A program made the translations under genes and the position numbers. A DNA stretch of 64,000 nucleotides from Gammaproteobacteria bacterium (GTDB lineage Bacteria > Pseudomonadota > Gammaproteobacteria > JAJDYQ01), in assembly GCA_963662865.1 (NCBI GenBank), contig OY759969.1, forward strand, positions 2,287,742 through 2,351,741. The letters are read 5' to 3'. Shown piece after piece: positions 4,694-57,004 of the stretch. Numbering within the stretch: position 1 is the first letter of the stretch; each line of letters begins with the position of its first letter. Below the pieces are notes generated by a model. The model saw nothing but the letters and a program-made list of their open reading frames with translations, was not told the origin of the DNA and did no database searches.

Positions 4694-4733
4694 CCTTTAG
4701 GGAAATTGCATAAAACAGAAGTGCCATTAAATT

Positions 4734-5580: not shown

Positions 5581-5710
5581 TTTATACGCATATCGTTTGC
5601 AGCACCATTACTTTATGGAATAAGTAGACTATTACTACAGATCAAAGCCCAGAAAAGTGAATTTACTGGTAAATTTACGCATATTGGTTGTTTAAGAACT
5701 AGGAAATAGC

Positions 5711-6919: not shown

Positions 6920-6933
6920 TTGAGGCGTTAGGC
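6876..6933 (+). other. attC site 3
   Basis: GCCTAACAAATCAATCCAGCCGACCGCCTTCGGCGGCGGCTGATTGAGGCGTTAGGC, with a GCCTAAC inverse core and a GTTAGGC core around a short palindrome. Confidence 0.75.
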
Positions 6934-6956: not shown

Positions 6957-8042
6957 TTAGGATTTTTCATTTAACAGAAACTCCATACCTGCCAACTCAT
7001 GTCCATTTACGATAATGCTAATCGAATGATTACCTGCATAATATTCTCTTGTTGAAATTTTCTTGAACGAAAAAGATTTCTTAACAGTTTTGTTATTACT
7101 ATCAACTTCTGACTCAGATATTTTGAATATTTTCCTTGATAAATTACCGCTTTTCTTAACAAAATCTATCGCATATTCAATTCTAAGCCTTCCGAGCTTT
7201 TGTTTTTGCGATTCAATTGTAAAAGAGAAATTCAGATTACCTTCCATTTCAACGGATTTTTGGGTTGTGAAATTTTTAATTTCAAGATGCTCTGGCTTTG
7301 AGAAGCCAAACAGATTCATTATCTCCGGCTGCCCTTGCTTTAGTAGCGTGCGACAAGCGTGCTTAATAATCCAGTCTGTTCGTTGATTGCTACCCAGCCA
7401 GCTCTTGGCTATCTCTATTACAATCTGTGGGTTATCTTTTGATATGTCATTCAGATTATTGGCAACGCTCCTTCTTACATATTCACTATCATCATTTTTC
7501 AGTTTTTCCAATATCGGCAGGATTTGGGATGGATCTCGCTTAAATTCAGGAAGTGCCATTGCCCAGGGTAAGCGAGGCCGACATCCTTCAGATGAAAGCC
7601 GACGTACATGGTGATTTTCTGATTCAGCCCATAATTCCATTTGTGCCATCATTTTCTTATTATGTTTTTTAATGAATGGTCGAACCGCAGACTCAGAACT
7701 TGCATACGAGGTGAAGTGCTCCAAAGCATGAATGGACTCTTCATACTGATCTAAGCCATACAGCTCCACAAAACCCGGAAAAAACATATACTGAAATCCA
7801 CTGAATTTTGATGACAATTTCATTAGTATTTGAATAGCATCAGAATAATCCATTGGTAAATATTGGTGCAATGATTCTGAAATATGTTTCATCCGCTCCT
7901 TTAGTTCTTTTTCTTTCCATTCATTATCAAATATATGAGAAGAAAACCCATCTTCATCAAAATTCTCATGCAGGCTTGACACTTGTTCGCACAAGGATTT
8001 TACAAGTTCAACGTTGTATAAGTTTTTTAATGGTTCCGGCAT
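6957..8042 (-). CDS. DNA alkylation repair protein (AlkD/AlkC-like HEAT-repeat glycosylase family) (cassette 4, reverse orientation)
   Basis: 361 aa. YVRRSVANNLNDISKDNPQIVIEIAKSWL matches the DNA_alkylation repair-enzyme family signature. Confidence 0.55.
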   Translation of the reverse strand: MPEPLKNLYNVELVKSLCEQVSSLHENFDEDGFSSHIFDNEWKEKELKERMKHISESLHQYLPMDYSDAIQILMKLSSKFSGFQYMFFPGFVELYGLDQYEESIHALEHFTSYASSESAVRPFIKKHNKKMMAQMELWAESENHHVRRLSSEGCRPRLPWAMALPEFKRDPSQILPILEKLKNDDSEYVRRSVANNLNDISKDNPQIVIEIAKSWLGSNQRTDWIIKHACRTLLKQGQPEIMNLFGFSKPEHLEIKNFTTQKSVEMEGNLNFSFTIESQKQKLGRLRIEYAIDFVKKSGNLSRKIFKISESEVDSNNKTVKKSFSFKKISTREYYAGNHSISIIVNGHELAGMEFLLNEKS

Positions 8043-8185
8043 GGTTGGTTTTGAATCCTAACATTGCCAATGAGCGGCTTATTTTTCAGTGGCAAGCGCA
8101 GCACAGCTACTGAAAAATAAGTCCGATTCAATTGGGCTTGTCAAGCTTTTTTCATAATATGGTATCGGATTCAGGCAAGAAAATG

Positions 8186-8905
8186 CTATTTTGCATCCGC
8201 GCTTTCGGCCAGTTTGATCTTCCGGAAGCGAGCGACTACCTTGCCCCCGGCATTGTCGGAGTCGGCCATCAGACCGATTCCGTCGATGATCGGGTCGGTT
8301 GCAAAAATCTCGCGCCACCACGCGGCGACATTGATCGCCTGACGATGCCATATACCGTTTTCTGCATCGGCATTGGCGAATGCGCGTATCTGTACCCGGT
8401 GCAGAAAGTTGTTATAGCGTTTATACGGGCTGGGCCATAGTGCGCCAACGGCTTTTTCGCGCGCACGCACCAGATTAAGCGTCCTTGAGCTTAATTTACC
8501 GCCGGCCGACAGGTAAATGCGAAAGGCGAAGTCATCGCCATCCCTGCTATCTTCGGGCGGCCCATTGGTCGGGGACTCATCGACACGCCAATCAAAGATC
8601 AAAAAGGGAGTTGCGCTCAGGTCGAGCGGCGTCTCGAACTTCAGGTAAAAAAACGACGCGCCCCCCATGGCAGTCGCTTGCAGTGCATGCCTGCCTTGAT
8701 CGGGGACGATTTCGTATCGGGTTGGTGCCGGGACCTTGTCGGGGTCAAAAATCGCATAACCCCACTTCCCGCGTGCGATCTCGTCGAGCGATTGTGGGCG
8801 ATCTATCGGCAGATTGGCGATGATTTGCGAATCCAACAGCACTCGCTCGGCAGCACCGAGCGGCAACGACAGCAGTGTAAGAACGAGTGCAATAGAGCTT
8901 TTCAT
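8186..8905 (-). CDS. secreted DUF3047-like protein
   Basis: Signal peptide MKSSIALVLTLLSLPLGAA. The likely start is ATG at 8905 rather than the upstream TTG of the track ORF. Its 5' end is duplicated at 2885..3130. Confidence 0.55.
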   Translation of the reverse strand: MKSSIALVLTLLSLPLGAAERVLLDSQIIANLPIDRPQSLDEIARGKWGYAIFDPDKVPAPTRYEIVPDQGRHALQATAMGGASFFYLKFETPLDLSATPFLIFDWRVDESPTNGPPEDSRDGDDFAFRIYLSAGGKLSSRTLNLVRAREKAVGALWPSPYKRYNNFLHRVQIRAFANADAENGIWHRQAINVAAWWREIFATDPIIDGIGLMADSDNAGGKVVARFRKIKLAESADAK

Positions 8906-8997
8906 CTCTGCATTATAGCTCTTGTCGGCCACGCATATATTGAAGCATGGCTTTATTACCGCTAACGTGTGTCTGAAATATAGCGAGGTCAATTATT

Positions 8998-9810
8998 ATG
9001 CAGGCACAAGAAATTAATCTGGAAGAATATTTTATCCAGGACGAGCCGTATTATGAGCCGGTTGGTAATGAAATCGTTGTTTTTGAGGCTGCCTACAACA
9101 ATGGTTTGCCGATTTTATTAAAAGGACCGACCGGCTGCGGTAAAACCCGTTTCATGGAACACATGGCCTGGAAGCTGGAACGTCCGCTGATTACCGTTTC
9201 CTGCCATGATGACCTGACAGCCTCCGATCTTGTCGGGCGATTTCTGGTAAAGGATGGTGAGACGGTTTGGGTGGATGGGCCACTGGCGCGTGCGGTGCGT
9301 GCCGGGGCGGTCTGTTATCTGGATGAGGTGGTGGAGGCCCGCAAAGACACGACCGTGGTCATTCATCCGCTTGCCGATGATCGCCGGGTGCTGCCGATGG
9401 AGAAGATCGGCCACCTGCTGGAAGCGGGGCCGGAGTTTTGTCTGGCCATGTCATATAATCCCGGTTATCAGAGTGTCCTGAAGGACTTGAAGCAGTCAAC
9501 GCGCCAGCGATTTATCGCTCTCGAATTTGACTATCCCGATGCGAATCTTGAAACCCGCATCGTCGAGAAAGAGGCGGATCTGGATGCGCAAATGGCGGGC
9601 TTGCTGGTCAGATTTGCCGGTATGACGCGCAATCTGAAAGGTAACGGGCTGGATGAAGGCGCCAGCACGCGCCTGTTGGTACATGCGGGCAAGCTGATGG
9701 CGGCCGGCGTGGACCCGGTATCAGCCTGTCAGAGCGCGATAGCCCAGGCGCTTACGGATGATCCGGAAATGCTGGCGGCAGTCAACGAGCTGTCCGCATC
9801 GTTATTCTGA
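8998..9810 (+). CDS. cbbQ: CbbQ/NorQ/NirQ-family AAA+ ATPase (RuBisCO activase subunit-like)
   Basis: [55 protein letters not shown] and [21 protein letters not shown]. Length 270 aa. Near-colinear match to CbbQ. Confidence 0.85.
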
Positions 9811-9898
9811 TCCTGCCGTTACGGAAGCGAATCCGCTGATTTGCCCGGATGATCGCCTTTAAGTCATTTTCCCGGTATCCTTCGCACCTTGTTGCTCC

Positions 9899-10507
9899 AT
9901 GGATACTATGACCATGCCTGATAGAGTCGCCAGCGTAAAACGCGACACGCTGGAAACACAAATCGAAGCCTCCCTGAACCTGGACGGAATCGGTGAATCC
10001 GAATTTGAGACCGGCATACCTTTTCTTGACCACATGATGGACCAGATTGCCCGTCATGGCATGATTGATCTGTCTGTGAAAGCCAATGGTGATACCGGGA
10101 TTGATGATCACCACACAGTTGAAGATATTGGCATTACCATCGGCATGGCGTTGAAAAAGGCCCTGGGAGACAAGCAGGGCATCCGTCGCTATGGCCATGC
10201 CTATGTCCCTCTGGATGAAGCCTTATCACGAGTGGTGATGGATTTTTCCGGACGGCCCGGCATGGTATTCTGCGCTGAATTCACGCGCGCCCGTATTGGG
10301 GATTTCGATGTGGATCTGTTCCATGAATTTTTTCAGGGATTGGTCAATCATGCCCTGATTACGTTGCACATTGATTGCATCCGCGGCCAGAACAGCCACC
10401 ATATTGCCGAAACGATTTTCAAGGCATTCGGGCGTGCCCTGCGTATGGCCATCGAACCGGACCCGCGTATGGCCGGGGTGATTCCCTCAACCAAAGGCAC
10501 GCTTTAG
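9899..10507 (+). CDS. hisB: imidazoleglycerol-phosphate dehydratase
   Basis: [19 protein letters not shown] ... [13 protein letters not shown]. 202 aa. Confidence 0.9.
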
Positions 10508-23866: not shown

Positions 23867-26623
23867 TTATTCCGTAAGGATGTCTTTTATGTCCGATGCT
23901 TTTTTTGAAACCGCAAACTTCCATTTGCCGAATCTGCCGTTTTCGTTGACGGCTTTAATCCATTCTTTCATGTATGCGTGTTTTGTATCGTCTTTTTCTT
24001 TTTGCTGGCCCTTGGTTTCCAGCACAAGCAATTCTCCCGATTTCATCCGCACAAGAAAATCGGGGCGGTATTTTTTCACAATGCCATTGTAGATATATAA
24101 AACCTCAAAACCGAGATGGTCATTTTTAACCCACGCCTCAACCGCTTTATTTCTATCAAGCTCGAAAGATTCTGATGCTTCCCAGGTGCTGTCATAAACA
24201 CAGTAATTGATATGGCTTCTTTTCGCGGCTTTGCAGGGTTTGCCGGTCCGCCATGGGCGCATGTCGCCGGTTGATCGAATCGGATGGTTGTCATCAAGCA
24301 CAAGAGCGGTTTTCTCTGTATTGTTAAATTCTATTGCCTGCCAGAAATGACGAATGATCTTTGACATATTGAGCGTTATCACAAGATGTCTTCTCTTTAC
24401 ATCCTGATTAAAGAGAGCGGGCATTATCTGTATGCGGTCTGAATCCAGAAACTGTTCCGCAAGACGCACAAGTTCTGCCATCAATAGCGGCGCAGATGCC
24501 GGCCATTCAGGTTTCATTTCCTGCCAGACGATTTGTGCCGCCTTGAATACAAGGGTTTGTTTGCGGAATTTTTTCGCCAGCTTTTCAATATCAATGTCTT
24601 CAATTTGGGAAACGTCAGGCTTGTTATTTACCGTGGGCGCGATCTCCGCTATTTCAACGGTTGTTGAAGTATCCAGTTCCAGTTTTTTTATTTTTTTCCA
24701 ATCAATGGCAAGTTCGGGCCTGTAAGTTCTGTCTATGCGGATGACATTGGGCCACGAAATGGCAAACTGTCTCTTTTCATCCACAGGCCGAATGATCGTT
24801 TTCGGCGGCGGAGGCGGTGGAGGTTTATCCATGTCTTCGTGTGGCAGAAAGCTGAACGGCACACCGAAAACATTGACATATTCGGCATCAAATAATCCCG
24901 TGTCTTCATTGATTTCATAAGAAGCACGGCGTAGCCCACGCCCGATAATCTGCTCACATAACAATTGACTTGTGAATGCCCGCAGCCCCATAATCTGCGT
25001 CACTGTCCTTGCATCCCAGCCTTCGGACAACATTCCAACGGATATAACATTCTGTACTTGATCACCAGGTTTCCCTTCCTGCCCGACCGTGTTCACTTTT
25101 TCACGCAGAATTTCAGCCTGTTCTTTTTTCGTTGCTTTGCGACTACCTTCCCTGCCTGCTTTTGTTGTGCCCGGTTCCGGCTCTTTTTCCTCGGCTTTTT
25201 TCAGCACTTCCGAGTCGATATGCAAAATCCCATTGGGAGCGCATAACTCATGAATGCTAATGTCCTTATTGTCAAAGGCATACTTGATTCTGGCTGCTGT
25301 TTCCGTGCGGTTTGCGACCGTAATCATCACCGGCGGCGTTTTCGCCCCTTGTCCCTCCCATATTTCTTTTGTTTTTAACCAATCGTAACCGAGCAGGAGA
25401 TAGGCGTTTCTTACAAGGTCGGGAGGCGGTTCATGCGGTTCAGCCTTTCTGTTCAGGTCATCTTTGACTTCCTCTTCGTTGTAGATGTGATACAGGCGGG
25501 ATTTATGGGTACTGGCATTTGGCAGAGCGTCATCACGCACAACAACACGGGGTGTTTTGACAAGCCCTGATTCTATGGCGTCACTGAGTCCGAAATCGCT
25601 GACAATCCAGGGGAACAACATCTCTTCCGATGTCTTCTTGCCGCTTGGTGCAAATGGCGTAGCAGAAAAATCAAAGCAATTCAAAATCCCCCTGGTTTTG
25701 TGTATGCGGTCAAGGCCACCAACCCATTTTGTGGCCTCGTCTATTTCCTCTTTCCTGACACCTGCTATTTTTGACTGTGCCGGAACACGCCAGGCATGAT
25801 GGGCCTCATCGTTAATCACAATCAGATTTCTGGCATTGGCCATATCACCGAGAACTTCGCGGGTATATGCCTCATCGCTTTTCGCGCCGCGTTTATCCAC
25901 CCCTTTCTTCTTTTTGATTTTTTCCTCACTTTCCCAGTTCAGGGTATGCCAGTTTCTTATGAGAACCTTTGCCTGTCTCAGCTTTTCGAGCAGGGACAAC
26001 GGCACAATACCGAACTCATCGTAATAGTTCTGCCTGTTTGATGGCATCAAAACAGAAAGACGCTCCCTGACGGTCAGATTAGGCGCGACAATAAAAACAT
26101 TTTGTGAAAACCGCCTGTCTTGAGGGTAAGTGGCGCGATTGATGGCCTGCCACGCAATCAGCATGGCCATGACAACGGTCTTCCCTGTACCAGTGGCGAG
26201 CTTGGAGCACAAACGGCTCAGTTCTCTGTCCTTTGCAATTTCAATTCCGGTCTTTTCCGAGTCGGGAGTTTCAATAAACCATATCAGCGTTTCAATCGCT
26301 TCCATCTGGCAGAAGAAAAACGGGAAATCTCTTTGCTCGTTGTCCCTCCAGTGTTCAAGCAGGGCTTTGGTAATACCCGTAATTCCGGGGCAGCCCGCTT
26401 TGCACCAGGAGTCAACACGTTTACGGATTTGGTTGACGGTCGGCAGGGGAACAAAAATGCCCTTGTCCTGATGCGGTTTTGCCTTCGGGTCGGCAACCAT
26501 ATAACCCGCTTCACGACGACCCTCCACACGCTCAAGCGGGGCGTCTTCCTCGACGAACTTCCAGTGCTTGGAAGGTGCAGAGCAGGGGGAGTTGATTATG
26601 AGTGATGAGGATTTTTCAGGCAT
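23867..26623 (-). CDS. res: Type III restriction endonuclease subunit (Res): SF2 helicase plus C-terminal PD-(D/E)xK nuclease
   Basis: Helicase motif I LATGTGKTVVMA and motif II VINDEAHHAW. C-terminal endonuclease motif YRPDFLVRMKSGELLVLETKG. 918 aa. Confidence 0.85.
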   Translation of the reverse strand: MPEKSSSLIINSPCSAPSKHWKFVEEDAPLERVEGRREAGYMVADPKAKPHQDKGIFVPLPTVNQIRKRVDSWCKAGCPGITGITKALLEHWRDNEQRDFPFFFCQMEAIETLIWFIETPDSEKTGIEIAKDRELSRLCSKLATGTGKTVVMAMLIAWQAINRATYPQDRRFSQNVFIVAPNLTVRERLSVLMPSNRQNYYDEFGIVPLSLLEKLRQAKVLIRNWHTLNWESEEKIKKKKGVDKRGAKSDEAYTREVLGDMANARNLIVINDEAHHAWRVPAQSKIAGVRKEEIDEATKWVGGLDRIHKTRGILNCFDFSATPFAPSGKKTSEEMLFPWIVSDFGLSDAIESGLVKTPRVVVRDDALPNASTHKSRLYHIYNEEEVKDDLNRKAEPHEPPPDLVRNAYLLLGYDWLKTKEIWEGQGAKTPPVMITVANRTETAARIKYAFDNKDISIHELCAPNGILHIDSEVLKKAEEKEPEPGTTKAGREGSRKATKKEQAEILREKVNTVGQEGKPGDQVQNVISVGMLSEGWDARTVTQIMGLRAFTSQLLCEQIIGRGLRRASYEINEDTGLFDAEYVNVFGVPFSFLPHEDMDKPPPPPPPKTIIRPVDEKRQFAISWPNVIRIDRTYRPELAIDWKKIKKLELDTSTTVEIAEIAPTVNNKPDVSQIEDIDIEKLAKKFRKQTLVFKAAQIVWQEMKPEWPASAPLLMAELVRLAEQFLDSDRIQIMPALFNQDVKRRHLVITLNMSKIIRHFWQAIEFNNTEKTALVLDDNHPIRSTGDMRPWRTGKPCKAAKRSHINYCVYDSTWEASESFELDRNKAVEAWVKNDHLGFEVLYIYNGIVKKYRPDFLVRMKSGELLVLETKGQQKEKDDTKHAYMKEWIKAVNENGRFGKWKFAVSKKASDIKDILTE

Positions 26624-26649
26624 TGAGTTAGCGTGTATTTTGAATGCTT

Positions 26650-27444
26650 CTAATGAAGATACGACTCTATGTTTTGCTCAATGGGCTTCCTTGAATCTAT
26701 TGAACTGACTTGTGAGCCTGCAATATTTGCATCTATCAATCTACTTAAATGTTTGGATGGAATTTCTTCCTGGTTTTCAAAAATAAGCAGCGTAGATTTT
26801 TGTATCTCGTGAATAAAAAAATGTTGCAAGGTTATGGTAACTAACTTTGCTTTGTCCTGATTCGGAATTCCAAACAGAAAAAGAGGGATTCCTTCTTCTT
26901 TTTTCAGATAATAATCAATGATGTAATTCTCAGAGTTGTCTAAATCAGGCACCTGATAATCCTGCTCTAATTTAATATCAGGCTTATCGCTGATGATCTG
27001 TTCCAATAGCTCCTTTAAGTCTCTGTAAAAAGTGGATGAAAATCGATCTCTGTTCAGATAAGACAAGTCATAAACCTGATTCAGTGCCTGGCTTAAGCGA
27101 AAGATGCCTTGAGAGATTTGTTCAACTGAAACATCCACATAAAAATTGCCATTGTCCTCGTTGATTTGATTTTCAGCGAGTATCTGGTTCATCAATTTCC
27201 CTTTGTTACCTTTGAAGTACCCATCAACATTTGGAGTGTAGTAGCTCAATCTCATCATGGTATCTGCCCCATCGCTAATACGTACTTTGCCAACGTCAGT
27301 TTCCTGTAAATAGATAGAGTAATGGTCGCCATCCGGATATGAGAATGGGTTTGAGATCATTTTCTTTCCATTCTGACGCTCTATCAGTTTGATGTCGGTA
27401 CATAATTGACGGCAGAGTTCTTTCTGTAATTGATCTTTATTCAT
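26650..27444 (-). CDS. hypothetical protein (tentatively DUF1828/DUF1829-like), embedded between mod and res
   Basis: 264 aa, AT-rich. Overlaps the upstream ORF by 4 nt, so likely translationally coupled. The DUF assignment is from memory of FSYPDGDHYSIYL-type N-terminal domains and is unverified. Confidence 0.45.
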   Translation of the reverse strand: MNKDQLQKELCRQLCTDIKLIERQNGKKMISNPFSYPDGDHYSIYLQETDVGKVRISDGADTMMRLSYYTPNVDGYFKGNKGKLMNQILAENQINEDNGNFYVDVSVEQISQGIFRLSQALNQVYDLSYLNRDRFSSTFYRDLKELLEQIISDKPDIKLEQDYQVPDLDNSENYIIDYYLKKEEGIPLFLFGIPNQDKAKLVTITLQHFFIHEIQKSTLLIFENQEEIPSKHLSRLIDANIAGSQVSSIDSRKPIEQNIESYLH

Positions 27445-27920
27445 GCTAAAAAACCCTCAAAGAGATTCTGTTGTGGAGAATTCGAATGTATGCTGTAGTC
27501 TTCACATAAGCATTTGAATGCGCCATCCAGGTTTTCATACCTTTTGGTTGTTTGCGTGTCTTCATGCTCTGGGCTTCTATCGCCTCTATTGATACTTTCA
27601 GGAGTGGCATGATGGATGTGGCATTCATGGCTCGCCACATTGTTTTCATGGTTAGAACCGTTATAGCGGGAAAGCATGATGTTCTTACCGTCTTTTTCAA
27701 CAAGACGAATGCCACAAGAGAAATTCTCCATATTTGATTCATTTTGTCGGGCAAAAACCTTTATAGATAAATCAGACAAGTGATCAGGCTTATCGACACC
27801 GTCAAACTGAACATCAAAATTCCATTGCTGACTTCCTCTTTGGCTGGATTTTTGCTCCTCTTCTATGGTTTTGGGAATTTCTCTAATTGATTTCAATATT
27901 TCCTCTGAAATTTCCATCAC
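27441..27920 (-). CDS. hypothetical His/Cys-rich protein (HECHIHH motif), embedded between mod and res
   Basis: 159 aa. SRYNGSNHENNVASHECHIHHATPE is a possible metal site. The ORF starts immediately after the remnant ORF stop. Confidence 0.45.
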   Translation of the reverse strand: MMEISEEILKSIREIPKTIEEEQKSSQRGSQQWNFDVQFDGVDKPDHLSDLSIKVFARQNESNMENFSCGIRLVEKDGKNIMLSRYNGSNHENNVASHECHIHHATPESINRGDRSPEHEDTQTTKRYENLDGAFKCLCEDYSIHSNSPQQNLFEGFLA

Positions 27921-28192
27921 TCCACCTCTACAATCTCCATCACCTTCAAACTCTCAATCCTTCGATCATCCATGGTTCGAATGGTTTCAATTGCCTCACT
28001 CCGGCGGAAAAAGAATGGGAAATTCCTTTGTTCATCGTCCTGATGCAGTTTTGCCTTCGGGTCGGCAACCATATAACCCGCTTCACGACAGCCTTTCACA
28101 CGCTCAAACGAGGCGTCTTCCTCGATGAACTTCCAGTGTTTGGAAGGTGCGGCGTAGAGGGAGTTGATTATGAGAGATTTTAGGGCTAACAT
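27917..28192 (-). pseudogene. chimeric remnant: res 5' end (with an internal deletion) fused to a mod-3'-end-like sequence
   Basis: The 91-aa ORF MLALKSLIINSLYAAPSKHWKFIEEDASFERVKGCREAGYMVADPKAKLHQD|DEQRNFPFFFRRSEAIET|IRTMDDRRIESLKVMEIVEVE aligns to Res aa 8-52, then Res aa 93-112. Its tail resembles the Mod C-terminus VKIVDDRGIESLKVINVIQRK. The DNA at 28000..28192 is roughly 85-90% identical to 26318..26623. Confidence 0.8.
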
Positions 28193-28758
28193 TTTAAATC
28201 GCTGAAGGAAATTTTTTCCAAAGAGTGGATAACTTTGAAGTTCTTACCTCTGTACCAGCACTCGCCTATCGGCTGAGGTATTATTCGTTGCTTATTCAGT
28301 CTTTCTCCTTTTTCCCCTTCTTTCTCTGCAAGAACAACAAAGTGTTTTTTAATTTCAAGTTTAATATCAAAATGAGCCCACATCATTGAGACCAGATATT
28401 CCCAAACAGGAATAGTAAAAAGTATTTGTTTGCATGCTTCTCTAGGAATGCCATTTTTATCGGGAGACAAAGTTTCTTTTATCTCTAGAAAATAAATATC
28501 CATACCATTTTCATTCTGCGGCACTATAACCAGAAAATCACAAGATTTCTTGTAATCTTTTTGAATCTTTATTATCCTCGAGTGGGCTTTTCCTCCTGCC
28601 GGAATAGAAAGTTTAAGCCCATTATCAGGTGATTCAATTATTGTAAATCTAACTCGATTTCCTTCTTTCAACTCAAAACAGTTATTTTTTATAATTTTAC
28701 ATTGAATTTTTAGAAGTCTTTGTATTGCCTCCATGGGGTCAGTCATCTTTTGAATCAT
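28186..28758 (-). CDS. small PD-(D/E)xK-type nuclease-like protein
   Basis: 190 aa. SCDFLVIVPQNENGMDIYFLEIKET has the D...E-x-K spacing and resembles the Res endonuclease motif RPDFLV...LVLETKG. AT-rich. Overlaps the upstream ATPase gene end. Confidence 0.5.
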   Translation of the reverse strand: MIQKMTDPMEAIQRLLKIQCKIIKNNCFELKEGNRVRFTIIESPDNGLKLSIPAGGKAHSRIIKIQKDYKKSCDFLVIVPQNENGMDIYFLEIKETLSPDKNGIPREACKQILFTIPVWEYLVSMMWAHFDIKLEIKKHFVVLAEKEGEKGERLNKQRIIPQPIGECWYRGKNFKVIHSLEKISFSDLKC

Positions 28759-30121
28759 CCCTTTTCATATAGGTAAGCTCCGCAGATATCTGATTAATGC
28801 CATCAATCGCATTATCAAAAACCGTCATACCATCAATGCCCTGTTTATCTATAGTGCATTGTCTTAAGCCGCCTTTCTCACAAAGATAAGCTCTAACAGA
28901 TTTTGGGTCAAGATGATCAATCTCTGTATATTCTCTTTTATGCTTCACAAGAAACTCTTTTTTTCTGTCAAAATCACCGTGCAGCATAATCAGATTATTA
29001 ATTTCTTTGATTATGTAATCGCTGTAGGTTGTTATAAGAACTTTAATTCCTGCATTAACACAAAATACCAAGAGTCGTGCCATTAGAATTTGATTGGTCG
29101 GGCTAAGATGGCTTTCGGGCTCATCAATGATAAGGAGTTGATTTGGCGCAGCTTTGTGTTTTAAATAAAAATATAAATCAGAAAGCCCTCTTGCCGAGGA
29201 TGAAGCCAGATGTAATGGTATATTAAATTTATCCTTCCTTTTTCTTGAAATAAATCTGATTTCATCTTTTATCATCTTATAGTAGCCATCCATCATATAT
29301 CTTATTGGAACGACTGTATCATCTATCAATTCACTTTTTTGTCTTTGTATGTTTGACAAATCCCTGGTGAAGTCTATATTATCTTTTATGGGCTGTGCAT
29401 AACGTGCACTTTGTTTTTCAATAAAAATAAACGGATCAGAATGCCTATCGTCTGACAATTTTTGCAGCTCCTCAACCAACCTGTTCTTGGTAAAATCCAG
29501 TTCTTTATAAAACAATGAAATACCAAATCTTTCTGCGGATAAAATATGGAGATTGAGACCAATATTAAGTGCTGTTCTTGCAAGTAATCTGCATACACCA
29601 CTCTCAATGACCGATGACGGCATACTTTCTAAACCATCAGCTTCAAATATCAAATTTCTATCATCCTGAAAAAAGGATTTCATCGTTGCCTTATCTTTTG
29701 AAGGGAACTTGATTGCATCTGATGTCGTTTGATGGTCTTTTCCCCAGTCAAGTTGGAAATGTGCCCCTTCAAATTCGCTTCTTGGAGAGCTGAATACCTG
29801 ATGAATAATTTCTTGAGAAAAGAATTGATATGCTCTGTTGATCAACTCATTACGTATTTTTTCGTATTCTTCTAATTCAATACGTGCTGTGCCTGTCTCT
29901 TCTATCTGTCGTGTGACCTCTTCTATTTTTTCCTCAAACCATTCAGGGAAATCAATTATATCATAAAGGGGAAATCCATTTTTACAAAAATCTAAAAACC
30001 CATAAAGGGTATAAACAAGGTAAGTTTTACCGGTATTATTCTGCCCTGCAATGATCGTTAAATCTCCCAATTCCAGTTCGGCATCCTTGATTGGCCCGAT
30101 ATTTTTGAAGGTTGCTTTCAT
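28739..30121 (-). CDS. ABC-type AAA ATPase (AAA_15/AAA_21-like, OLD/Septu/PARIS-type) without a fused nuclease domain
   Basis: Walker A IIAGQNNTGKTYL near the N-terminus. A distal Walker B/D-loop LLIIDEPESHLSP, with a long insert between. Start placed at the ATG at 30121 (MKATFKNIGP) with an AGAGGAAAT RBS, 5 nt after the mod stop. Confidence 0.7.
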   Translation of the reverse strand: MKATFKNIGPIKDAELELGDLTIIAGQNNTGKTYLVYTLYGFLDFCKNGFPLYDIIDFPEWFEEKIEEVTRQIEETGTARIELEEYEKIRNELINRAYQFFSQEIIHQVFSSPRSEFEGAHFQLDWGKDHQTTSDAIKFPSKDKATMKSFFQDDRNLIFEADGLESMPSSVIESGVCRLLARTALNIGLNLHILSAERFGISLFYKELDFTKNRLVEELQKLSDDRHSDPFIFIEKQSARYAQPIKDNIDFTRDLSNIQRQKSELIDDTVVPIRYMMDGYYKMIKDEIRFISRKRKDKFNIPLHLASSSARGLSDLYFYLKHKAAPNQLLIIDEPESHLSPTNQILMARLLVFCVNAGIKVLITTYSDYIIKEINNLIMLHGDFDRKKEFLVKHKREYTEIDHLDPKSVRAYLCEKGGLRQCTIDKQGIDGMTVFDNAIDGINQISAELTYMKRDDSKDD

Positions 30122-30125
30122 GCTT

Positions 30126-32741
30126 TCATTTCCTCTGAATAACATTAATGACTTTGAGGCTCTCAATCCCACGGTCATCCACTATTTTAACCGCGATTCG
30201 GCTGTTTTTGCCCAATTCAAACGGCAGTGACACCGTGCCTTGGTAGGATTCTATCAGGCCTTCGTCTATTTCGGCCCTCAGGTTTCTGGCGAGTTTTGTC
30301 CAGCCGCCTTTGTCGTCTGCCATTGGGAAGAACACCTGACTCGGATACAGGCTTCTGCCGTCGTAGTCGGTGTCCAGCATCCAGACGGCGATTTTGTTTT
30401 CATCACCGGATTCCAGTTTGCCGGTTCGGGTATTGAAATAGTCAAAGCCGTTCATGTGCACCTGCCATTGCCCCATCAGTTCGCCTTTTCTGATTTGTTC
30501 TACCGCGATGTCCGGCTGGCCTATCAGCCAGAAACTTTCATTGCCTGACCGTTTCTTTTTCAGATCATCGGTTTGCAGGTCGGCGTTCATTTGCGCTTTC
30601 AGTGGTGTCACCCCGGGCCAGTTGGTTTCGTCTATATCCCTGGCGGCTTCGGGATCAAACTGAAAGGCGGCGAACACAACCATTTCAGGCTTTGGCATCA
30701 GGGTTGCCGCTTCCTGCAAGGCGTTTTCTACCTGTCGCGCTTCCAGCGGGGCGTGTTCCGGGCCGAAGGAGATCACCGCACGGCGGGGTTTATAGGCGGT
30801 TGCGGTTTCTCTTACTGCATCTGTACCGGAATCATCCGGTCTGGTTTCGGCGTCTGCATGCAGCCAGCGGCACGGCAGGGGGTCAATACGGGAAAATGAA
30901 ATGCGCTGTCCGCCCTTGCCGCGTATGCCGGTTTTCAGCAGTTCATCACGCCATTCGCTCTGGCGCAGGGTTTCGCCGGTGCGGGCAATGGTTGCATCTG
31001 CCGGAACAGGCGGCGCCTGTATATTATCAATCGGCTGCACGGTCGGAGACGGCACGGCTTCCGCGGTAAAGGGGCCGGTAACACGTGCCCGTTTACTGTC
31101 TTTTTCCGGTTGATCAAACAGGGTTTCCCTTGTAGATGGCTTTACGCCAATCAAAACGCTTGGGGATACCTTCGGAACATATTTATATTCAAACCCGCCT
31201 CCCACGCCTTCATCGGGCCAGGCCAGTTTGTAATAGTCAAATGTGGCGGTCATCAGTCGTTGTTTGGCGAGGGTCAATGCCACACGCGAAGTGTCGCAGG
31301 TGATCCAGCGGCGCCCCCATTGCTCGGCCATAGTGGCGGTTGTGCCGGAACCGCAGGTCGGGTCAAACACCAGATCGCCCGGGTCGGTCGTCATCAGGAG
31401 GCAGCGTTGTATGGCCTTAACCGAAGTCTCCACAACATATCTCTTTTCACTCGGATACATCTGCGCCGGCCAGATATTATTGATACGCCGTCCCGGCACT
31501 TCATCTTCGTACTTTTTCCACCTGAGAGAGTCCTGTTTTTCAAGTGCTTCCAGCCGCCCCATTTCTGCCAGTTTGTCCAAGCCCTGTTTTGAAACAGACC
31601 AGTGTCTGTTTTTTGAACATCGGAAAATTCTGCCCTTCCATTGATAGGGTTCGGACCTTCCGGTGGTAGAAACGCCCTGCGAGTCCAGTCCTGTGCGCTG
31701 ATAGATGCGCGCCCCCTCGGGCAGGAATTTATCGGGGTTGAAACGTTCTTCATCGGTTAATTTCCGGCAGGTGCCATCAGACAGTTCCACCGCCACATAA
31801 GAGCTAAAGTAATCCACGATTTCCGGTCGTGTCAGTGGTTCGTACAACTGCCGATACTTCGCTTGGTTTTTGTCTTTTGCATACCAGAGCAGGTAGTCCG
31901 AGACCTGCGGCAGGTGTTGTGTGGAACTGCCACTGGTAGTCGCAAATGAAATGGTGGCGATACGATTCTCCGCGCCAAAAATATCGTCCATCACGGTCCC
32001 GACTCGATGCACATTTTCATCGCCAATCTGCACAAAGCACGAACCGCTTTCGGTCAGCAATTCACTTGCCAGCAAAAACCGGTCACGCAGATAGGTCAGA
32101 TACGAATGAATACCCAGTTCCCAGGTGTCGCGGAACGCCTTGATCATTTCCGGTTCAGAGGTTAAGTCCTCATCTTTGCCATCCCGTACCTCGCGTTTAC
32201 CCACAAACGGCTGAAAATTGGAGCCGTATCTAATGCCATATGGCGGGTCCATATAGACACACTGCACCTTGCCTGCCATATTCTCTTTTTGCAGCAGCGA
32301 GTTCATCACCAGCAGCGAATCACCGGCAATCAGGCGGTTGCTCCAGTTGTTGGCGTGTTGGTAAAACTCGATCGCTTGGCGCAGCGGGATGCTCTGCTCT
32401 TCTTCAAAAAGCGACGCCTGTCTGCCGTTACCGCCGTTGCTGTTTCTGACCGCTTCGATGATGGTGCGCGGGTCAATGCGCTCGTGGACATGCAACGATT
32501 GGGTCGGCACGGCAAAAGATGTGTGCTCGGCCTTGCCGGCCCATTGCAGTTGCGGGTCCAGGTGCGGGTCGTGTTGCCAGGTCTTTTTTTCTCCTTTGTC
32601 CGGGTCGGTTTTGGGCGTTACCAGCCCGGCGGGCGGATTGTTTGCCCTTTCCTCGCCTCCATGAGAGTAGGATTCGATTTTGCGTTTTTTCGGCGGCAAG
32701 TTTGTACACACCTTTTGATGATTCCTCCCATGGTACCGCAT
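30126..32741 (-). CDS. mod: Type III R-M N6-adenine DNA methyltransferase (Mod, beta-class) with a long C-terminal extension
   Basis: LIAGDSLLVMNSLL...GKVQCVYMDPPYGIRYGSNF (motif IV) precedes motif I LVFDPTCGSGTTATMAEQWGRRWITCD. 871 aa versus about 600-650 for typical Mod proteins. Confidence 0.8.
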   Translation of the reverse strand: MRYHGRNHQKVCTNLPPKKRKIESYSHGGEERANNPPAGLVTPKTDPDKGEKKTWQHDPHLDPQLQWAGKAEHTSFAVPTQSLHVHERIDPRTIIEAVRNSNGGNGRQASLFEEEQSIPLRQAIEFYQHANNWSNRLIAGDSLLVMNSLLQKENMAGKVQCVYMDPPYGIRYGSNFQPFVGKREVRDGKDEDLTSEPEMIKAFRDTWELGIHSYLTYLRDRFLLASELLTESGSCFVQIGDENVHRVGTVMDDIFGAENRIATISFATTSGSSTQHLPQVSDYLLWYAKDKNQAKYRQLYEPLTRPEIVDYFSSYVAVELSDGTCRKLTDEERFNPDKFLPEGARIYQRTGLDSQGVSTTGRSEPYQWKGRIFRCSKNRHWSVSKQGLDKLAEMGRLEALEKQDSLRWKKYEDEVPGRRINNIWPAQMYPSEKRYVVETSVKAIQRCLLMTTDPGDLVFDPTCGSGTTATMAEQWGRRWITCDTSRVALTLAKQRLMTATFDYYKLAWPDEGVGGGFEYKYVPKVSPSVLIGVKPSTRETLFDQPEKDSKRARVTGPFTAEAVPSPTVQPIDNIQAPPVPADATIARTGETLRQSEWRDELLKTGIRGKGGQRISFSRIDPLPCRWLHADAETRPDDSGTDAVRETATAYKPRRAVISFGPEHAPLEARQVENALQEAATLMPKPEMVVFAAFQFDPEAARDIDETNWPGVTPLKAQMNADLQTDDLKKKRSGNESFWLIGQPDIAVEQIRKGELMGQWQVHMNGFDYFNTRTGKLESGDENKIAVWMLDTDYDGRSLYPSQVFFPMADDKGGWTKLARNLRAEIDEGLIESYQGTVSLPFELGKNSRIAVKIVDDRGIESLKVINVIQRK

Positions 32742-51480: not shown

Positions 51481-51489
51481 CAATACACC

Positions 51490-52135
51490 GCCACACAACC
51501 AGATAATCAAGCCAGACCAGCGAAAAAAGACTAGAACCTATCTCAAGTGTTATCCCAACTACAAAACGGTCCATCGGCGTTTTCAAAAATGGTGCGAAGA
51601 CCATGTGATTCGTGACATGATGGTGGAGCTTGTCAATACATTGAGAGCGCAAAATGACTTAAGATGAATTGGAATGTTTTATTGACGGCATGTTTTCTCC
51701 AGCCAAAGGTGGAGGCGAAGAAATTAGGTTGACCAAGCGCGGAAAAGGCATTAAAATCATGGCGATAGTGGACAAACACGGATTGCCTTTGTCGGTCAGT
51801 CCTCATGCGGCCAGTCACCATGAAGTGACATTAGTTCAACTGAGTTTTGATTTTTACATGATTGAGGCGAGGCCGGAAAAACTGATTGGAGATAAGTCGC
51901 TATGACAGCGCTCCGTTTGATGAAGAACTGGCAGAACAAGGAATAGAAATGATTGCGCCGCACAAGCGAAATCGAGTCAAGCCAAGTACTTAAAATGGGC
52001 GAAAACTCAGGCGCTATCAATGGCGCTGGTTGGCCGAATATTTTCGGTGGGAGTATTATGCTGCTAATTTCCTGGGCTTTGTTCAACTGGCTACTGTTAA
52101 TATCCTGCTTAAACAATTTTGATATAGGTCTTAAT
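51490..52135 (+). mobile_element. IS5-family DDE transposase gene remnant (frameshifted and 5'-truncated)
   Basis: Pieces in three frames: YKTVHRRFQKWCEDHVIRDMM; ECFIDGMFSPAKGGGEEIRLTKRGKGIKIMAIVDKHGLPLSVS...EARPEKLIGDKSYDS; [17 protein letters not shown]...RRYQWRWL. The IS5/IS1031-type C-terminal region carries a deletion relative to the second copy. Confidence 0.75.
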
Positions 52136-53219
52136 GGCAAGGAAGACGAGAAAAAGAATGTATTATATGCTGAAAAAAGCCTTATATCCATACTACGGCA
52201 TTAGAGTCACAATAAAGCGCTTGAATTATATATGGAAATTAGCGTTTTACCCGTTAATTATTCAAGTTGGGAGAAGAAAAGAGCCAGGCATAAATGAGAA
52301 TAAAAGTACACGAACAGTAAAAATTTTACATTGCTCCTCAAGAATAAATTTCACCACGTTAAAGAAGCAATTTAATACAGAAAAAGGATGGGGGAATATA
52401 GAATTCACAACAGACAGATATGCTGATTATTATCTTATAGTGGATCATCCGCTGAATGGTCAACTGTCATACTACAATCCGAAGCGAACGTTGCTTTATT
52501 TTGGAGAGCCTTCAGGATCTTCAATGCCAATGTTTAGAAGAATGTTCATGAAGGCATGGAGCGAGCTTGATAAAGAAAGCTTTTTTCATGTGTCACAAAT
52601 GCCGCACAGACGAATGTTTACGATCTGGCATCTCTCAAAGTCATACCATTGGTTGAAAGAAAACTCAATCCGTAAAACAAAGGTGTGTTCCACGGTAACA
52701 TCAGATCAGAGCCTGCTTCCTCTTCATAAAAAAAGATTGCAGTTCGTCACAATGCTGGATGAGCAGATCAGCATAGACATATATGGAAAAGTGAACAGGT
52801 TCAGGTCGCCACTAAAAGCCTGTTCGCAATATCAAGGGGAACTGCCGCCTATTGGAAAAGACAAAGGACTGTTTCCATACAAATATCATTTTGCTTCTGA
52901 GAACAACATTGAAGATAATTACATTACGGAGAAGCTAACGGATGCAATTCTGGCGGAGTGTTTATGCTTTTATTATGGGACGAAGACAGCTAAAGACTGG
53001 ATAGATAGCGAGGCATTTATCCATATAGATATAATGAGGCCTGCTGAGGCGATTAGCCTTATAAAAAAGGCAATTGAAAATAAAGAGTGGGAAAAGCGCA
53101 TCCACATTATACGCAAAGAAAAGCAGAAAATACTGGATGAAATGCAGCTATTTGCTGACATTGAGAATGTAATAAATCACAATGAAAAATTTATGCAGTA
53201 TAAAAAATTGAGAAAGTAA
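52134..53219 (+). CDS. GT10-family alpha-1,3-fucosyltransferase-like glycosyltransferase (AT-rich cargo between IS remnants)
   Basis: YHFASENNIEDNYITEKLTDAILAECLCFYYGTKTAKDWIDSEAFIHI matches the conserved FxxxFENSxxxxYxTEK block of alpha-1,3-fucosyltransferases such as the H. pylori FutA motif FENSQGYGYVTEKIIDAYFSHTIPIYWG. The true start may be an internal Met at about 52161. Confidence 0.7.
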   Translation: MARKTRKRMYYMLKKALYPYYGIRVTIKRLNYIWKLAFYPLIIQVGRRKEPGINENKSTRTVKILHCSSRINFTTLKKQFNTEKGWGNIEFTTDRYADYYLIVDHPLNGQLSYYNPKRTLLYFGEPSGSSMPMFRRMFMKAWSELDKESFFHVSQMPHRRMFTIWHLSKSYHWLKENSIRKTKVCSTVTSDQSLLPLHKKRLQFVTMLDEQISIDIYGKVNRFRSPLKACSQYQGELPPIGKDKGLFPYKYHFASENNIEDNYITEKLTDAILAECLCFYYGTKTAKDWIDSEAFIHIDIMRPAEAISLIKKAIENKEWEKRIHIIRKEKQKILDEMQLFADIENVINHNEKFMQYKKLRK

Positions 53220-53295
53220 ATGATGTGATAATTGATATTGATTGTAAAAAATAGAAGAAGGTTTGTGGGGGATGAGGAGGTCCTATAGTATCTAT

Positions 53296-53640
53296 GATTT
53301 TTCAAAACACTTTTGAGTTTTGATTTTTACATGATTGAGGCGAAGCCGGAAAAACTGATTGGAGATAAGGCCTATGACAGCGATCCGCTTAATGTAAGGG
53401 CTGGCAGAACAAGGAATAGAAATGATTGCGCCACACAAGAGAAATCAAGTTAAGCCAAGTACTCAAGATGAACGAAAGCTCAGGCGCTATCAGCGCCGCT
53501 GGTTGGTTGAACGTTTTTTTGCCTGGATACAATGGCAAAGACGCTTCCTTGTTCGATGGGAATATCATGCTGCCAATTTCCTGGGCTTTGTTCAACTGGC
53601 TACTGTTAATATCCTGCTTAAACAATTTTGAGATAGGCTC
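53296..53640 (+). mobile_element. second, partial copy of the IS5-family transposase 3' end (direct repeat of 51850..52135)
   Basis: [74 protein letters not shown] is about 88% identical to the first copy and ends 5 bp before the trpD ATG. Confidence 0.75.
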
Positions 53641-53644
53641 TACT

Positions 53645-54670
53645 ATGAATTTACAACAAGCTATTGCGACCGTCATTGACGGACGGGACCTGTCGCACGA
53701 CGACATGAAAAATGTCATGCGTCTCATCATGACCGGCGAGGCAACCGCGGCCCAGATCGGTGGTTTCCTGATTGGTCTGCGCATGAAAGGGGAAACAGTG
53801 GACGAGATCGCGGCGGCGGCGAAGGTGATGCGCGACCTCGCACACAAGGTTGATGTTTCCGGTGACCATATTGTCGATATTGTCGGCACCGGCGGCGACG
53901 GTTCCGGCACATTCAATATCTCCACGGCCTCCTGTTTTGTGGTTGCTGCGGCAGGCGGCAAGGTCGCCAAACACGGCAACCGTTCAATCTCCAGCAAGTC
54001 CGGCAGTGCCGATTTACTCGAAGCTGCCGGCGTCAACCTCGATCTGACCCCTGAACAGATCGAACAATGTATCGAACGGGTCGGTGTTGGTTTTATGTTT
54101 GCCCCCAGGCACCATAGCGCCATGAAACATGCGATCGGCCCTCGTAAAGAAATGGGGGTGCGCACCATATTCAATATCCTGGGACCGCTCACCAATCCCG
54201 CCGATGTGCCTAATCTGGTCATGGGCGTCTTTTCTCGAAAACTGGTGGAACCACTGGCGCACGTATTCAAGGCATTGGGCAGCAACCACGTCATGGTCGT
54301 GCATTCGGATGATGGGCTGGATGAAATCAGCACTGCCGCCAATACCCATGTTGCCGAATTGAGAAATGGTGAAATCACCACCTGGGAGATTGACCCCGCT
54401 GATTATGGATGCCAGGCCGACAGCCTTGAACCAATCAAAGTGGAGAGTGCAGAGGAAAGTCTCGAGCTGGTGTACTTGGTACTGGCCGGCAAGCCGGGCC
54501 CCGCGCTGGACATCGTTGTACTTAACGCCGGAGCCGCAATCTACGTCTCAGGCCTTGCGGATTCCATGGCAGCCGGCGTTGCCAGGGCGCGAGAGGTTAT
54601 TGAGTCGGAAGATGCCGCAGAAAAAATGGCGCAGCTTGTTTCCGTATCCAACATGTCTGCCGTCGTATAG
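53645..54670 (+). CDS. trpD: anthranilate phosphoribosyltransferase
   Basis: [51 protein letters not shown] ... [17 protein letters not shown]. The upstream part of the track ORF is the IS fragment in frame. Confidence 0.9.
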
Positions 54671-55016
54671 GTGCCGGAACAGACTGATTCATGCTGCGCA
54701 ATTACTCCGGTGCAGACCGGAGCGTGTCAGATGGGGAGATACTCGTCTGCAAGGTGTACAGACCATCATCAAGAGGTAAAAGGGGGGTGTTTTCTGAGAG
54801 CCACGATAACGACTTCCTCTTCGGTTGCCGGTACCATGGAACGGGCATCCTGCGGCCCCGGCCCGATGTCTTCAACACTGTGGCGTTTGCGCCACTTCGC
54901 CGCGGCCTCTTCATTGATGCCATAGCGCTGACTTAACTCTTTGAGCAAAGCCGTTGATCACTGTATTGACGTTCGGATCACATATGTTGTCGTGGTGCTT
55001 GCATGTAATAGCTGAC

Positions 55017-55913
55017 CTATAAATCCTCCTGTTCAAATGGCTTAAAAAACTTGGGATCAATATCATAAGTTGTACGAGGCTTTACACCCAATTCTAGTTT
55101 TTCAAACATCTCCACTAGCTTCTCGCCATCTACCAGTTCTATTGGCCGAGCGCCATCGCGCATGGCTTCTCTTTTTGCATCAGATGTAAAACTTCCGGTG
55201 GTGAGCACTATGCCTTTTTCGGCGCGCCCCTCCATTGCGCCGCGAAAATCGCGTATTTGCGACGAGGTAACACTGCCTTTATATCGCTTACATTGGAACA
55301 CTACCTGGAAGCTGACGAGCGGATTAATCTGCAGGATCCCATTACCATCTATGCCTCCATCACCTGACCGACCGGTTACTTCCACGTTTTCGAAACCTGC
55401 TTCCCTTAAAAGCCTTTGGCATACACGCTCAAAACCAAAGGATGGTAGAGATTTTAATATTCTGAGTAATTCCTCTCTGTAGCTCGTATCCGACATATCA
55501 GAAAAAATAGTTTCATCGGATTTCTGTGAAAAATTTTGTTCATGATTATCTGTAGATTTTCTTGTTTTCGTCTTCGCTGATGCGTTTCTAGTACTTTTAG
55601 TAATTTCTTCTATCTCTTCTTCAGATAGTTGGTGAGCACGCTGCCCCTTTTCTGTTAAAGCCCAAACTCCCCTTGGCGAGGAATTATCAAGATAACCCGT
55701 TTTAACCAAATGAAATCTTGCCCAGTGAACTTGATCTTTATAATGGGATTGACCATTTTTTAGCGTTTTATCAAGAACATCATCACTTAAAGATAGATCA
55801 TTAGCAATTCTTGCGCAGACTTCATCTGGTCTAGCAGATCCTCCCAATTTCTTCAGCGCGGATATAAGTGGATTCATGTAAACTGCAAACGCTGGTCCAG
55901 CCATTCTTACCAT
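55017..55913 (-). CDS. mrr: Mrr-family restriction endonuclease (N-terminal winged helix plus Mrr catalytic domain)
   Basis: FERVCQRLLREAGFENVEVTGRSGDGGIDGNGIL ... QCKRY ... catalytic core of the Mrr_cat type. AT-rich. Lies between trpD and trpC on the opposite strand. Confidence 0.75.
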   Translation of the reverse strand: MVRMAGPAFAVYMNPLISALKKLGGSARPDEVCARIANDLSLSDDVLDKTLKNGQSHYKDQVHWARFHLVKTGYLDNSSPRGVWALTEKGQRAHQLSEEEIEEITKSTRNASAKTKTRKSTDNHEQNFSQKSDETIFSDMSDTSYREELLRILKSLPSFGFERVCQRLLREAGFENVEVTGRSGDGGIDGNGILQINPLVSFQVVFQCKRYKGSVTSSQIRDFRGAMEGRAEKGIVLTTGSFTSDAKREAMRDGARPIELVDGEKLVEMFEKLELGVKPRTTYDIDPKFFKPFEQEDL

Positions 55914-56206
55914 TCCTCTGGGTTAATAGGCATAACTATTAATAGTATGGCCTAGCCTACCACAAAATGCGAATAGGCGCAAAAATCGTGTGCTAAAATG
56001 ATTCACTCGCTTCTAGCCCAAAATATATTTATATTAAAGTGTCTGCTTCAACGCAAAATCAGGCCCGGGATGCCATCTTTCCCGCATGGGCTGGCTGATG
56101 GGCCAGTCAATACAATAGCATATGACCACACAAGGGGCTGGGATTACAAGCCCGAATGCGGTACATTGTCAGCAGAGAAAATGCAATATGTAGGAGATTT
56201 ATACAC

Positions 56207-57004
56207 ATGCCCGATACGCCTGATATCCTGCTGAAAATACTTGACTGCAAGCGCCAGGAGATTGCCGCACGCAGCGCATCTATATCGCTGGCCGATCTGG
56301 AAGCAAAGACAGGTCAGGCACCTCGGCCACGCGGCTTTGTTGCCGCAATACGGCGCTCCGTTGCCGATGGCCGTGCGGCCGTTATTGCCGAAGCAAAGAG
56401 GGCATCACCCAGTAATGGTATCGTGCGGAGAGATTTTGATATCGTGCAGATTGCCAAAAGCTACCAGGCCGGCGGTGCCAGTTGCATGTCGGTCCTCACC
56501 GACAAAGACTTCTTCCAGGGCAGCGACGACTATCTGAAACAGGCGCGTACAGCCTGCGACCTGCCGCTGATACGCAAAGACTTTATTATTGATCCTTACC
56601 AGGTCCATGAGGCACGCATCATAGGGGCTGACTGTATTTTACTGATTGCCGAGGCCCTCGAAGATGCACAAATGGCCGAATTGACTCGGCTCGCAGGGCA
56701 ATTGGAACTGGACGTGCTGATTGAAGCCCATGACGGTAATGAACTGGAGCGTGCGCTGCAACTCGACCAGACCCTGGTAGGTATCAATAATCGCAACCTG
56801 CATACCTTCAAAACAACACTGGACACCACCATCAACCTGCTTGATCAGGTCCCCAAAGATCGGATTGTTGTTACCGAAAGTGGTATTCATACACGGGAAG
56901 ACGTAAAACGGATGCAGGATAATAATGTGAACGCCTTTTTGGTTGGAGAGGCATTTATGCGGGTGCCTGAACCGGGAGAGAAATTGAGAGAACTGTTCTT
57001 TTGA
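56207..57004 (+). CDS. trpC: indole-3-glycerol phosphate synthase
   Basis: [15 protein letters not shown] ... [13 protein letters not shown] ... LIGINNRNL. Confidence 0.9.

Follow-up and report, generated by a model that had tools for sequence, protein, structure and literature searches.

Why does a 1536-nt interval separate trpD from trpC, two genes that normally adjoin each other, and what would the gene on its opposite strand do there? The locus lies in a 64,000-nt (64-kb) stretch of DNA, here called the window (positions 2,287,742 to 2,351,741 of contig OY759969.1, GenBank assembly GCA_963662865.1), from a gammaproteobacterium of the lineage JAJDYQ01, in which positions 54671-56206 are exactly the trpD-trpC spacer. 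The longest open reading frame (ORF) in that spacer (55017..55913, minus strand, 298 aa) is an intact Mrr-family gene in which all catalytic residues are kept, and we consider it probable (roughly 0.8) that this gene was gained by horizontal transfer, encodes a stand-alone Type IV (modification-dependent) restriction endonuclease and is the cargo of a variable trpD-trpC islet. A sequence-only reading of the window had already called a complete, AT-rich Mrr-like gene, its product pairing a winged-helix N-domain with an Mrr catalytic domain, on the strand opposite to trpD and trpC, and had described the trp operon as an integration hotspot; these claims are borne out below, and the last of them is strengthened. 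Beyond that reading, we describe a remnant of an IS481-family insertion sequence (IS), a cargo junction within the last Mrr codons, a dispersed repeat at the right edge and a scrap of an integron-integrase gene.

Functionally, the identity of the protein is carried by both of its domains, with Pfam matches to Mrr_N (PF14338) at residues 11-93 (E-value 1.9e-20) and to Mrr_cat (PF04471) at residues 154-269 (E-value 1.7e-32), and by the full-length mREase_IV (Type IV methyl-directed) model of PADLOC, which spans residues 4-280 (E-value 7e-26). It is collinear with EcoKMrr of E. coli K-12 (residues 4-280 versus 1-291, 28% identity, E-value 2e-23), and the motif G-D185-G-G-x-D ... Q207-x-K209-R is kept without exception when the protein is aligned with EcoKMrr and 19 homologues, in agreement with the (D/E)...(D/E/Q)xK variant of PD-(D/E)XK by which Mrr-cat is defined (PMC3874153). 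The sole sequence match in the PDB was the catalytic domain of MspJI, with which the catalytic residues of the Mrr protein align. An AlphaFold2 (AF2) model, built from a homologue alignment without the E. coli sequence, has a mean confidence (pLDDT) of 81.8 and two folded domains with a disordered linker between them (about residues 113-137); its Mrr_N part consists of helices and a beta wing (pLDDT about 90). The top Foldseek matches of this model were MspJI and AspBHI (E-values 2.7e-6 to 1.2e-5), followed by Rpb5, AF1548 and winged-helix proteins.

Some of the same searches would allow the Mrr_cat nuclease to serve another defence context, either PADLOC system PDC-S02 or a NACHT-associated effector, in place of a stand-alone Type IV enzyme. 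The lowest PADLOC E-value indeed belongs to PDC-S02 models (4.8e-30), and the Pfam family NA-iREase1 also matches (E-value 1.5e-11). However, these matches cover the C-terminal nuclease domain only (residues 121-293), as opposed to residues 4-280 for mREase_IV, Mrr_cat scores 68 bits higher than NA-iREase1, the catalytic residues are present, contrary to what an 'inactive REase' family would have, and no partner gene adjoins, the neighbours being trpD and trpC. We regard this alternative as very improbable, the least credible of those weighed here.

Compared with known enzymes, the stand-alone Mrr-family endonuclease resembles EcoKMrr (b4351) in combining Mrr_N with Mrr_cat, in size (304 aa in E. 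coli versus 295-298 aa here), in the GDGGxD...QxK motif and in having no cognate methyltransferase. It differs in its low identity to EcoKMrr, in a C-terminal tail rebuilt from flanking DNA, and in its location: the E. coli gene belongs to the hsdRMS-mrr-mcrBC immigration control region, and the window gene stands alone within the trp operon. The modification-dependent enzymes MspJI and AspBHI (Type IIM/IV; PDB 4F0P, 4F0Q, 4OC8) share the Mrr-cat fold and are the best structural matches, but MspJI carries an N-terminal SRA-like base-flipping domain where this protein has the Mrr_N winged helix, such that only the C-terminal half aligns. No methyltransferase gene adjoins Mrr, whose neighbours are trpD, the IS481 remnant and trpC, the nearest being a Type III Mod gene about 22-25 kb away. 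Among its homologues, some close ones are likewise solitary amid housekeeping genes (P0003), others lie directly 3' of hsdM-hsdS-hsdR (L090, L092-L094), as at the E. coli K-12 locus, and homologues are present on 41 plasmids; none was found in viral contigs, and the phage collection returned just two weak matches.

Mechanistically, we posit that the Mrr_N winged helix would bind DNA carrying foreign methylation (N6-methyladenine, m6A, and/or 5-methylcytosine, m5C) with low sequence selectivity, and that the PD-(D/E)XK nuclease, of the Mrr variant D...QxK (D185, Q207, K209), would then cleave it. Such an enzyme would work without a partner methyltransferase, and host methylation would have to fall outside its specificity.

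The gene is also of foreign composition, with a GC content of 42.1% and a third-codon-position GC (GC3) of 33.8%, as compared with 51-56% and 55-62%, respectively, in trpE, trpG, trpD and trpC; about 15% of 900-nt windows across the 64-kb stretch are as AT-rich, because the stretch holds several other islands. Translation likely starts at the second ATG (55904); this start yields 295 aa, is the one used in the database entry for the protein (P0001) and lies 9 nt 3' of an AGAGGA box. In a database of 5.8 billion proteins the identical sequence occurs once, from one contig of 2.57 Mb, the best non-self relative is 69% identical, and more than 8000 relatives were retrieved at E ≤ 1e-5. Since the family is this large and well known, the identification adds little by itself: this is an ordinary defence gene, a previously unseen member of a known family, in an unusual and variable location. 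That location is made up of the following features (coordinates in the window).

53645..54670, plus strand: trpD (anthranilate phosphoribosyltransferase), intact, whose stop codon bounds the insertion on the left (TIGR01245, E-value 2e-127)
54672..55038, minus strand: IS481-family transposase remnant, N-terminal third, frameshifted (three-frame translation; NF033577)
55017..55913, minus strand: Mrr-family gene, probably a Type IV restriction endonuclease (Pfam, PADLOC, EcoKMrr alignment, AF2/Foldseek)
55039..56134, no strand assigned: cargo unique to this genome, comprising Mrr and its upstream region, GC 42.5%, without a counterpart in the related loci L082 or L085 (blastn and alignments)
56038..56064, plus strand: 27-nt integron-integrase scrap 'KVSASTQNQA', 25/27 identical to window positions 3121-3147 on the minus strand (blastn, E-value 8e-4)
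56090..56206, plus strand: dispersed repeat X, which ends exactly at the trpC ATG (blastn; pattern count)
56207..57004, plus strand: trpC (indole-3-glycerol phosphate synthase), intact, bounding the insertion on the right (NF001373, E-value 2.6e-118)

Is this arrangement peculiar to the window, or a feature of the operon at large? In a distant comparison set of 78 gammaproteobacterial loci, with TrpC identities of 57-65%, tblastn placed TrpD and TrpC mostly 20-55 nt apart, with a median gap of about 37 nt, and in seven close relatives found via TrpC (75-84% identical), which share the synteny rpe-gph-trpE-trpG-trpD-trpC-cmoA-cmoB-VWA, the gap was 1-2 nt, that is, an empty site, in four (L081, L084, L086 and L088). 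The window trpD is collinear with those of L081, L082 and L084 at 76-82% nucleotide identity, and the window trpD and trpC both clear their NCBIfam cut-offs by a wide margin. These comparisons agree with the sequence-only reading that trpD and trpC are normally adjacent. That reading had also named an observation that would refute it, the same gene with housekeeping GC content at this position throughout related genomes; this is not what the comparison shows, as the gene occupies the spacer in none of the seven related loci and in none of the 78 distant ones, which have no Mrr homologue there at all.

The remaining relatives carry other material at the site. In L082 and L083 the trpD-trpC spacer is 2477 nt long and holds different minus-strand genes (7792-9928), namely one for a 159-aa protein with a weak GIY-YIG match, a frameshifted DUF3825 gene and one for an unknown 126-aa protein (GC 40%), and the same two loci carry, in the gph-trpE gap (1888-4323), a Type II restriction-modification system made up of an Eco57I-type methylase and a BsuBI/PstI endonuclease split into two ORFs. 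L085, the closest relative (84% TrpC identity), has a third kind of sequence upstream of a 72-nt edge shared with the window. Thus, the trpD-trpC site is a variable hotspot, empty in some relatives and occupied by different cargo in others, with conserved flanks. At 1-70 of L085, 30 nt of mid-trpD sequence (AGVNLNLTP) lie 40 nt upstream of the shared right-edge repeat, as would be expected if a deletion or rearrangement had cost this locus the 3' half of trpD, or if this 1.3-kb contig were misassembled.

Two of the 78 distant loci have small, unrelated inserts between trpD and trpC: a same-strand pair of an antitoxin and a PIN-domain protein (VapBC-like) in L004 (9321-9982) and a lipoprotein gene in L055 (2850-3293). 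Both are independent insertions in distant Gammaproteobacteria and Betaproteobacteria.

The edges of the islet tell a different story from its cargo. On the left, the IS481 remnant begins straight after the trpD stop codon; its stitched 88-aa peptide, which maps to 54692-54951, matches NF033577 (E-value 1.2e-8) over profile positions 16-100 of 284, and its GC content of 53.8% is host-like. Homology between the window and L082 runs unbroken from trpD through this remnant to about 55038, with a 100-nt internal deletion in the L082 copy, and stops within the last Mrr codons, such that the final five codons and the stop codon of Mrr (EQEDL-stop) come from the shared flank. Mrr homologues end in ...FFEPFKD, whereas the window protein ends in ...FFKPF-EQEDL; because the homology ends inside these codons, the cargo junction clipped the native 3' end of Mrr. 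On the right, the last 72 nt or so of repeat X are conserved 5' of trpC in L082, L083 and L085 and include the trpC ribosome-binding site. The edges are conserved at 72-82% identity among the relatives, and judged by their divergence from L082 and L085, which about equals that of the trp genes, both edges predate the split from these two lineages, the cargo between them having turned over.

On this anatomy, the islet fills the spacer with a decayed IS481 remnant on its left and a dispersed repeat bearing the trpC ribosome-binding site on its right, and cargo could turn over by IS-adjacent deletions, by homologous replacement via the conserved trp and edge flanks, or by cassette-type exchange. 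No target-site duplications or terminal inverted repeats beyond chance-level short matches flank the insertion. Nor does the islet carry the signature of a composite transposon, there being a single truncated IS481 remnant on one side and a repeat without transposase similarity on the other. It is comparable to defence islets at chromosomal hotspots in its conserved core flanks, its empty or varied site, the mobile-element debris at its edges and the restriction genes nearby in relatives, and unlike them in lying inside a biosynthetic operon, between genes otherwise 1-2 nt apart, and in being very small and holding a single gene. A biosynthetic operon this tightly packed can thus accommodate a variable defence islet with all of its trp genes retained, and the islet edge even provides the ribosome-binding site of the downstream trpC.

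Several points weigh against an active, modification-dependent Mrr enzyme within an islet of single origin. The native Mrr C-terminus has been swapped for five flank-encoded residues. Promoter matches around the gene are not above chance (two found versus 2.6 expected from shuffles): one sigma-70-like match, TTGAAG-18-TATATT, faces Mrr (56022..56051, minus strand) and a divergent one faces trpC (56002-56029, plus strand), both as consensus matches only. LlaGI has Mrr motifs and yet does not target methylated DNA (PMC3874153), so similarity in the nuclease domain alone is no proof of modification dependence. The Type III Mod about 25 kb away belongs to the class that activates EcoKMrr, and if the specificities of Mod and Mrr overlapped, one of the two would need to be silent. 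Evolutionarily, TrpEGDC identities of 83-85% do not separate the window, L081 (empty) and L082 (occupied); because the phylogeny leaves these three as a trichotomy, one ancestral insertion at trpD-trpC is likely but not proven.

The window encodes a Type III-like Mod (30126-32741, 871 aa; PADLOC MTase_III, E-value 2e-152), whose ORF is intact, and a Res (23867-26623, 918 aa), with about 3.5 kb between the two genes and, in that interval, inserted defence genes with a GC content of about 34-40%. Published work has shown that methylation by a Type III Mod (StyLTI, ED1a Mod) triggers EcoKMrr, that gaining either EcoKMrr or a Type III Mod drives loss of the other, and that across genomes the occurrence of close homologues of one is negatively correlated with that of the other (r = -0.52) (PMC3152355). 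The sequence-only reading had seen in Mrr a coherent complement to the Type III system; Mod and Res are present as it said, but the complementary role is not supported, as EcoKMrr attacks Mod-methylated DNA (PMC3152355), and this antagonism makes their co-residence a compatibility constraint, with no evident complement. At only 28% identity to EcoKMrr, the specificity of the window protein cannot be inferred either way. A seemingly intact Mrr beside a seemingly intact Type III Mod is a natural test case for the published antagonism.

This co-residence also invites the view that Mrr is a decaying or silenced passenger, its frame intact but the gene unexpressed or the product inactive, and tolerated as harmless because an active Mrr would clash with the resident Mod. 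An intact Mod ORF in the window, an antagonism under which one partner is often lost (PMC3152355), a C-terminus rebuilt from flank sequence, surroundings that are all debris (IS481 remnant, intI scrap, repeat) and the failure to find a convincing promoter or terminator at Mrr are all consistent with it. Against it, the 295-aa frame is unbroken where the neighbouring pseudogenes are frameshifted, every invariant position of the family is kept, including the catalytic D, Q and K, and the replaced tail lies outside the conserved region, in a part where homologues differ and where EcoKMrr ends otherwise. We therefore judge a silent passenger unlikely, if the least unlikely of the alternatives, and infer that the Mrr-family endonuclease is expressed and acts on methylated DNA. 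A 28-nt imperfect palindrome (TAGGCATAACTATTAATAGTATGGCCTA; 55927..55954) lies just 5' of the Mrr ribosome-binding site, on the Mrr side of the promoter-like site, and is possibly an operator or regulator-binding site; it is not conserved in the Mrr homologues examined.

What, then, are the repeat and the integrase scrap at the right edge? The scrap (56038..56064), which also matches the intI' of the related locus L175, lies 60 nt upstream of the blastn-matched core of repeat X (56124-56190). Repeat X has a second copy in the window at 2660-2742 on the minus strand, and its 23-nt core gives two matches in the window versus none expected; it has no protein-family match and no significant fold (z -0.6). 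We rejected the idea that it encodes the C-terminal end of an rve/IS481 transposase (by eye, 'LADWLVKCNQLADHTKGWGYK'), for which no NCBIfam or PDB match appeared even at an E-value of 10, and its resemblance to the IntI box II region (by-eye identity of about 26% over 30 aa) is not statistically detectable. A degenerate pattern scan of metagenome contigs for the repeat gave no matches, in a collection without even the contig of L082 itself.

The second copy leads to a decayed chromosomal integron at 2573-6933, which consists of a truncated intI and a divergent, plus-strand array of AT-rich ORFs.

3081-3347, minus strand: truncated integron-integrase gene intI' (TIGR02249, E-value 1.2e-24)

Three attC sites (4602-4693, 5466-5580 and 6877-6933), with RYYYAAC...GTTRRRY ends and DNA-fold z-scores of -2.4, -3.4 and -6.8, respectively, were located by direct reading and folding, a home-made attC scanner having been discarded because it performed no better than on shuffles and missed two obvious sites. 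Cassette genes include one at 4734-5471, for a protein with NERD and topoisomerase-type zinc-ribbon parts, and one at 5711-6919, whose product resembles alanine dehydrogenase. A DUF3047 gene has its 5' end duplicated in inverted orientation (2908-3137, plus strand, and 8660-8890, minus strand, with the full copy at 8186-8992, minus strand); the duplication brackets the integron segment and suggests an inversion or insertion that also truncated intI. Outside the window, the 2.57-Mb contig of the source genome has genes for three or more paralogous, truncated pieces of the IntI N-terminus (P0243, P0244 and P0247; 88, 122 and 69 aa, respectively; 80-100% identical), so that this genome carries several decayed integrase copies, and the relatives L175 and L176 have an intI' with a divergent array of small ORFs in the classical layout.

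On these grounds Mrr could have arrived as an integron gene cassette, the islet being a decayed integron platform with a plus-strand intI remnant next to trpC and minus-strand cassettes. The scrap is followed collinearly by repeat X both here (56038-56206) and at 3147-2660, the latter within a genuine, if decayed, integron in a genome with at least three intI' paralogues, and the direction of Mrr and of the L082 cargo genes, away from the scrap, is that expected of cassettes. In the L082 cargo, the DUF3825 gene has a plausible attC-like site (GCTTAAC...GTTAGGT) after it. Defence genes are known cargo of integron cassettes (bioRxiv 10.1101/2024.07.02.601719), and a cassette origin would explain why the cargo differs between relatives. 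Beside Mrr, however, there is no attC (no RYYYAAC...GTTRRRY hairpin), its 3' end runs into the IS481 remnant, the region upstream of it does not fold (z -1.0), and no attI was found, only the 27-nt intI-like scrap. Repeat X has no detectable IntI similarity and is missing from the intI' loci L175 and L176, IntI similarity was not found in L082, and the closest Mrr homologues lie outside cassette arrays. Cassette arrival is accordingly improbable, and more so than a silenced gene. The locus does share with sedentary chromosomal integron arrays an intI scrap beside cargo that is transcribed away from it, cargo that varies, and an integron with the same intI' and repeat X 50 kb off, but with neither attC nor attI detectable at Mrr we do not place it among them.

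A broader version of this idea, and one to which we give just as little credence, is that the trpD-trpC islet, perhaps with other trp-operon insertions of the clade, is what erosion has left of an integron-like exchange platform within an essential biosynthetic operon, at which defence genes such as Mrr were once swapped as cassettes. If this were true, the right-edge repeat and the intI scrap would be the platform's footprint, and the flanks of a core operon would secure both its retention and the homologous exchange of cargo between strains.

Whatever the route by which the Mrr-family endonuclease came to its islet, the same operon has taken up foreign DNA elsewhere. Within one small clade, four foreign segments lie in it (Mrr, a GT10 gene, the DUF3825 cargo and the PstI-like restriction-modification genes), with IS or recombinase debris beside each, and the operon is thus well suited, as a natural system, to the study of how cargo turns over at a hotspot. 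In the window, the second of these insertions lies between trpG and trpD.

51481..53644, plus strand: trpG-trpD insertion, IS5-family remnants flanking a GT10 gene (family matches, direct repeats)

Its GT10-family (fucosyltransferase-like) glycosyltransferase gene (52134-53219) is AT-rich (GC 37%) and is flanked by direct repeats of 290-325 nt (51841-52128 and 53314-53637). The insertion is not in L081, L082 or L084, in which about 55 nt separate trpG from trpD.

The minus-strand defence island around the Type III genes (23867-32741) is ordered Res, a DUF1828/PDC-M24B protein, a 159-aa ORF, a PD-T4-4 pair (190 aa and 479 aa; PD-T4-4_A, E-value 3e-108) and Mod.

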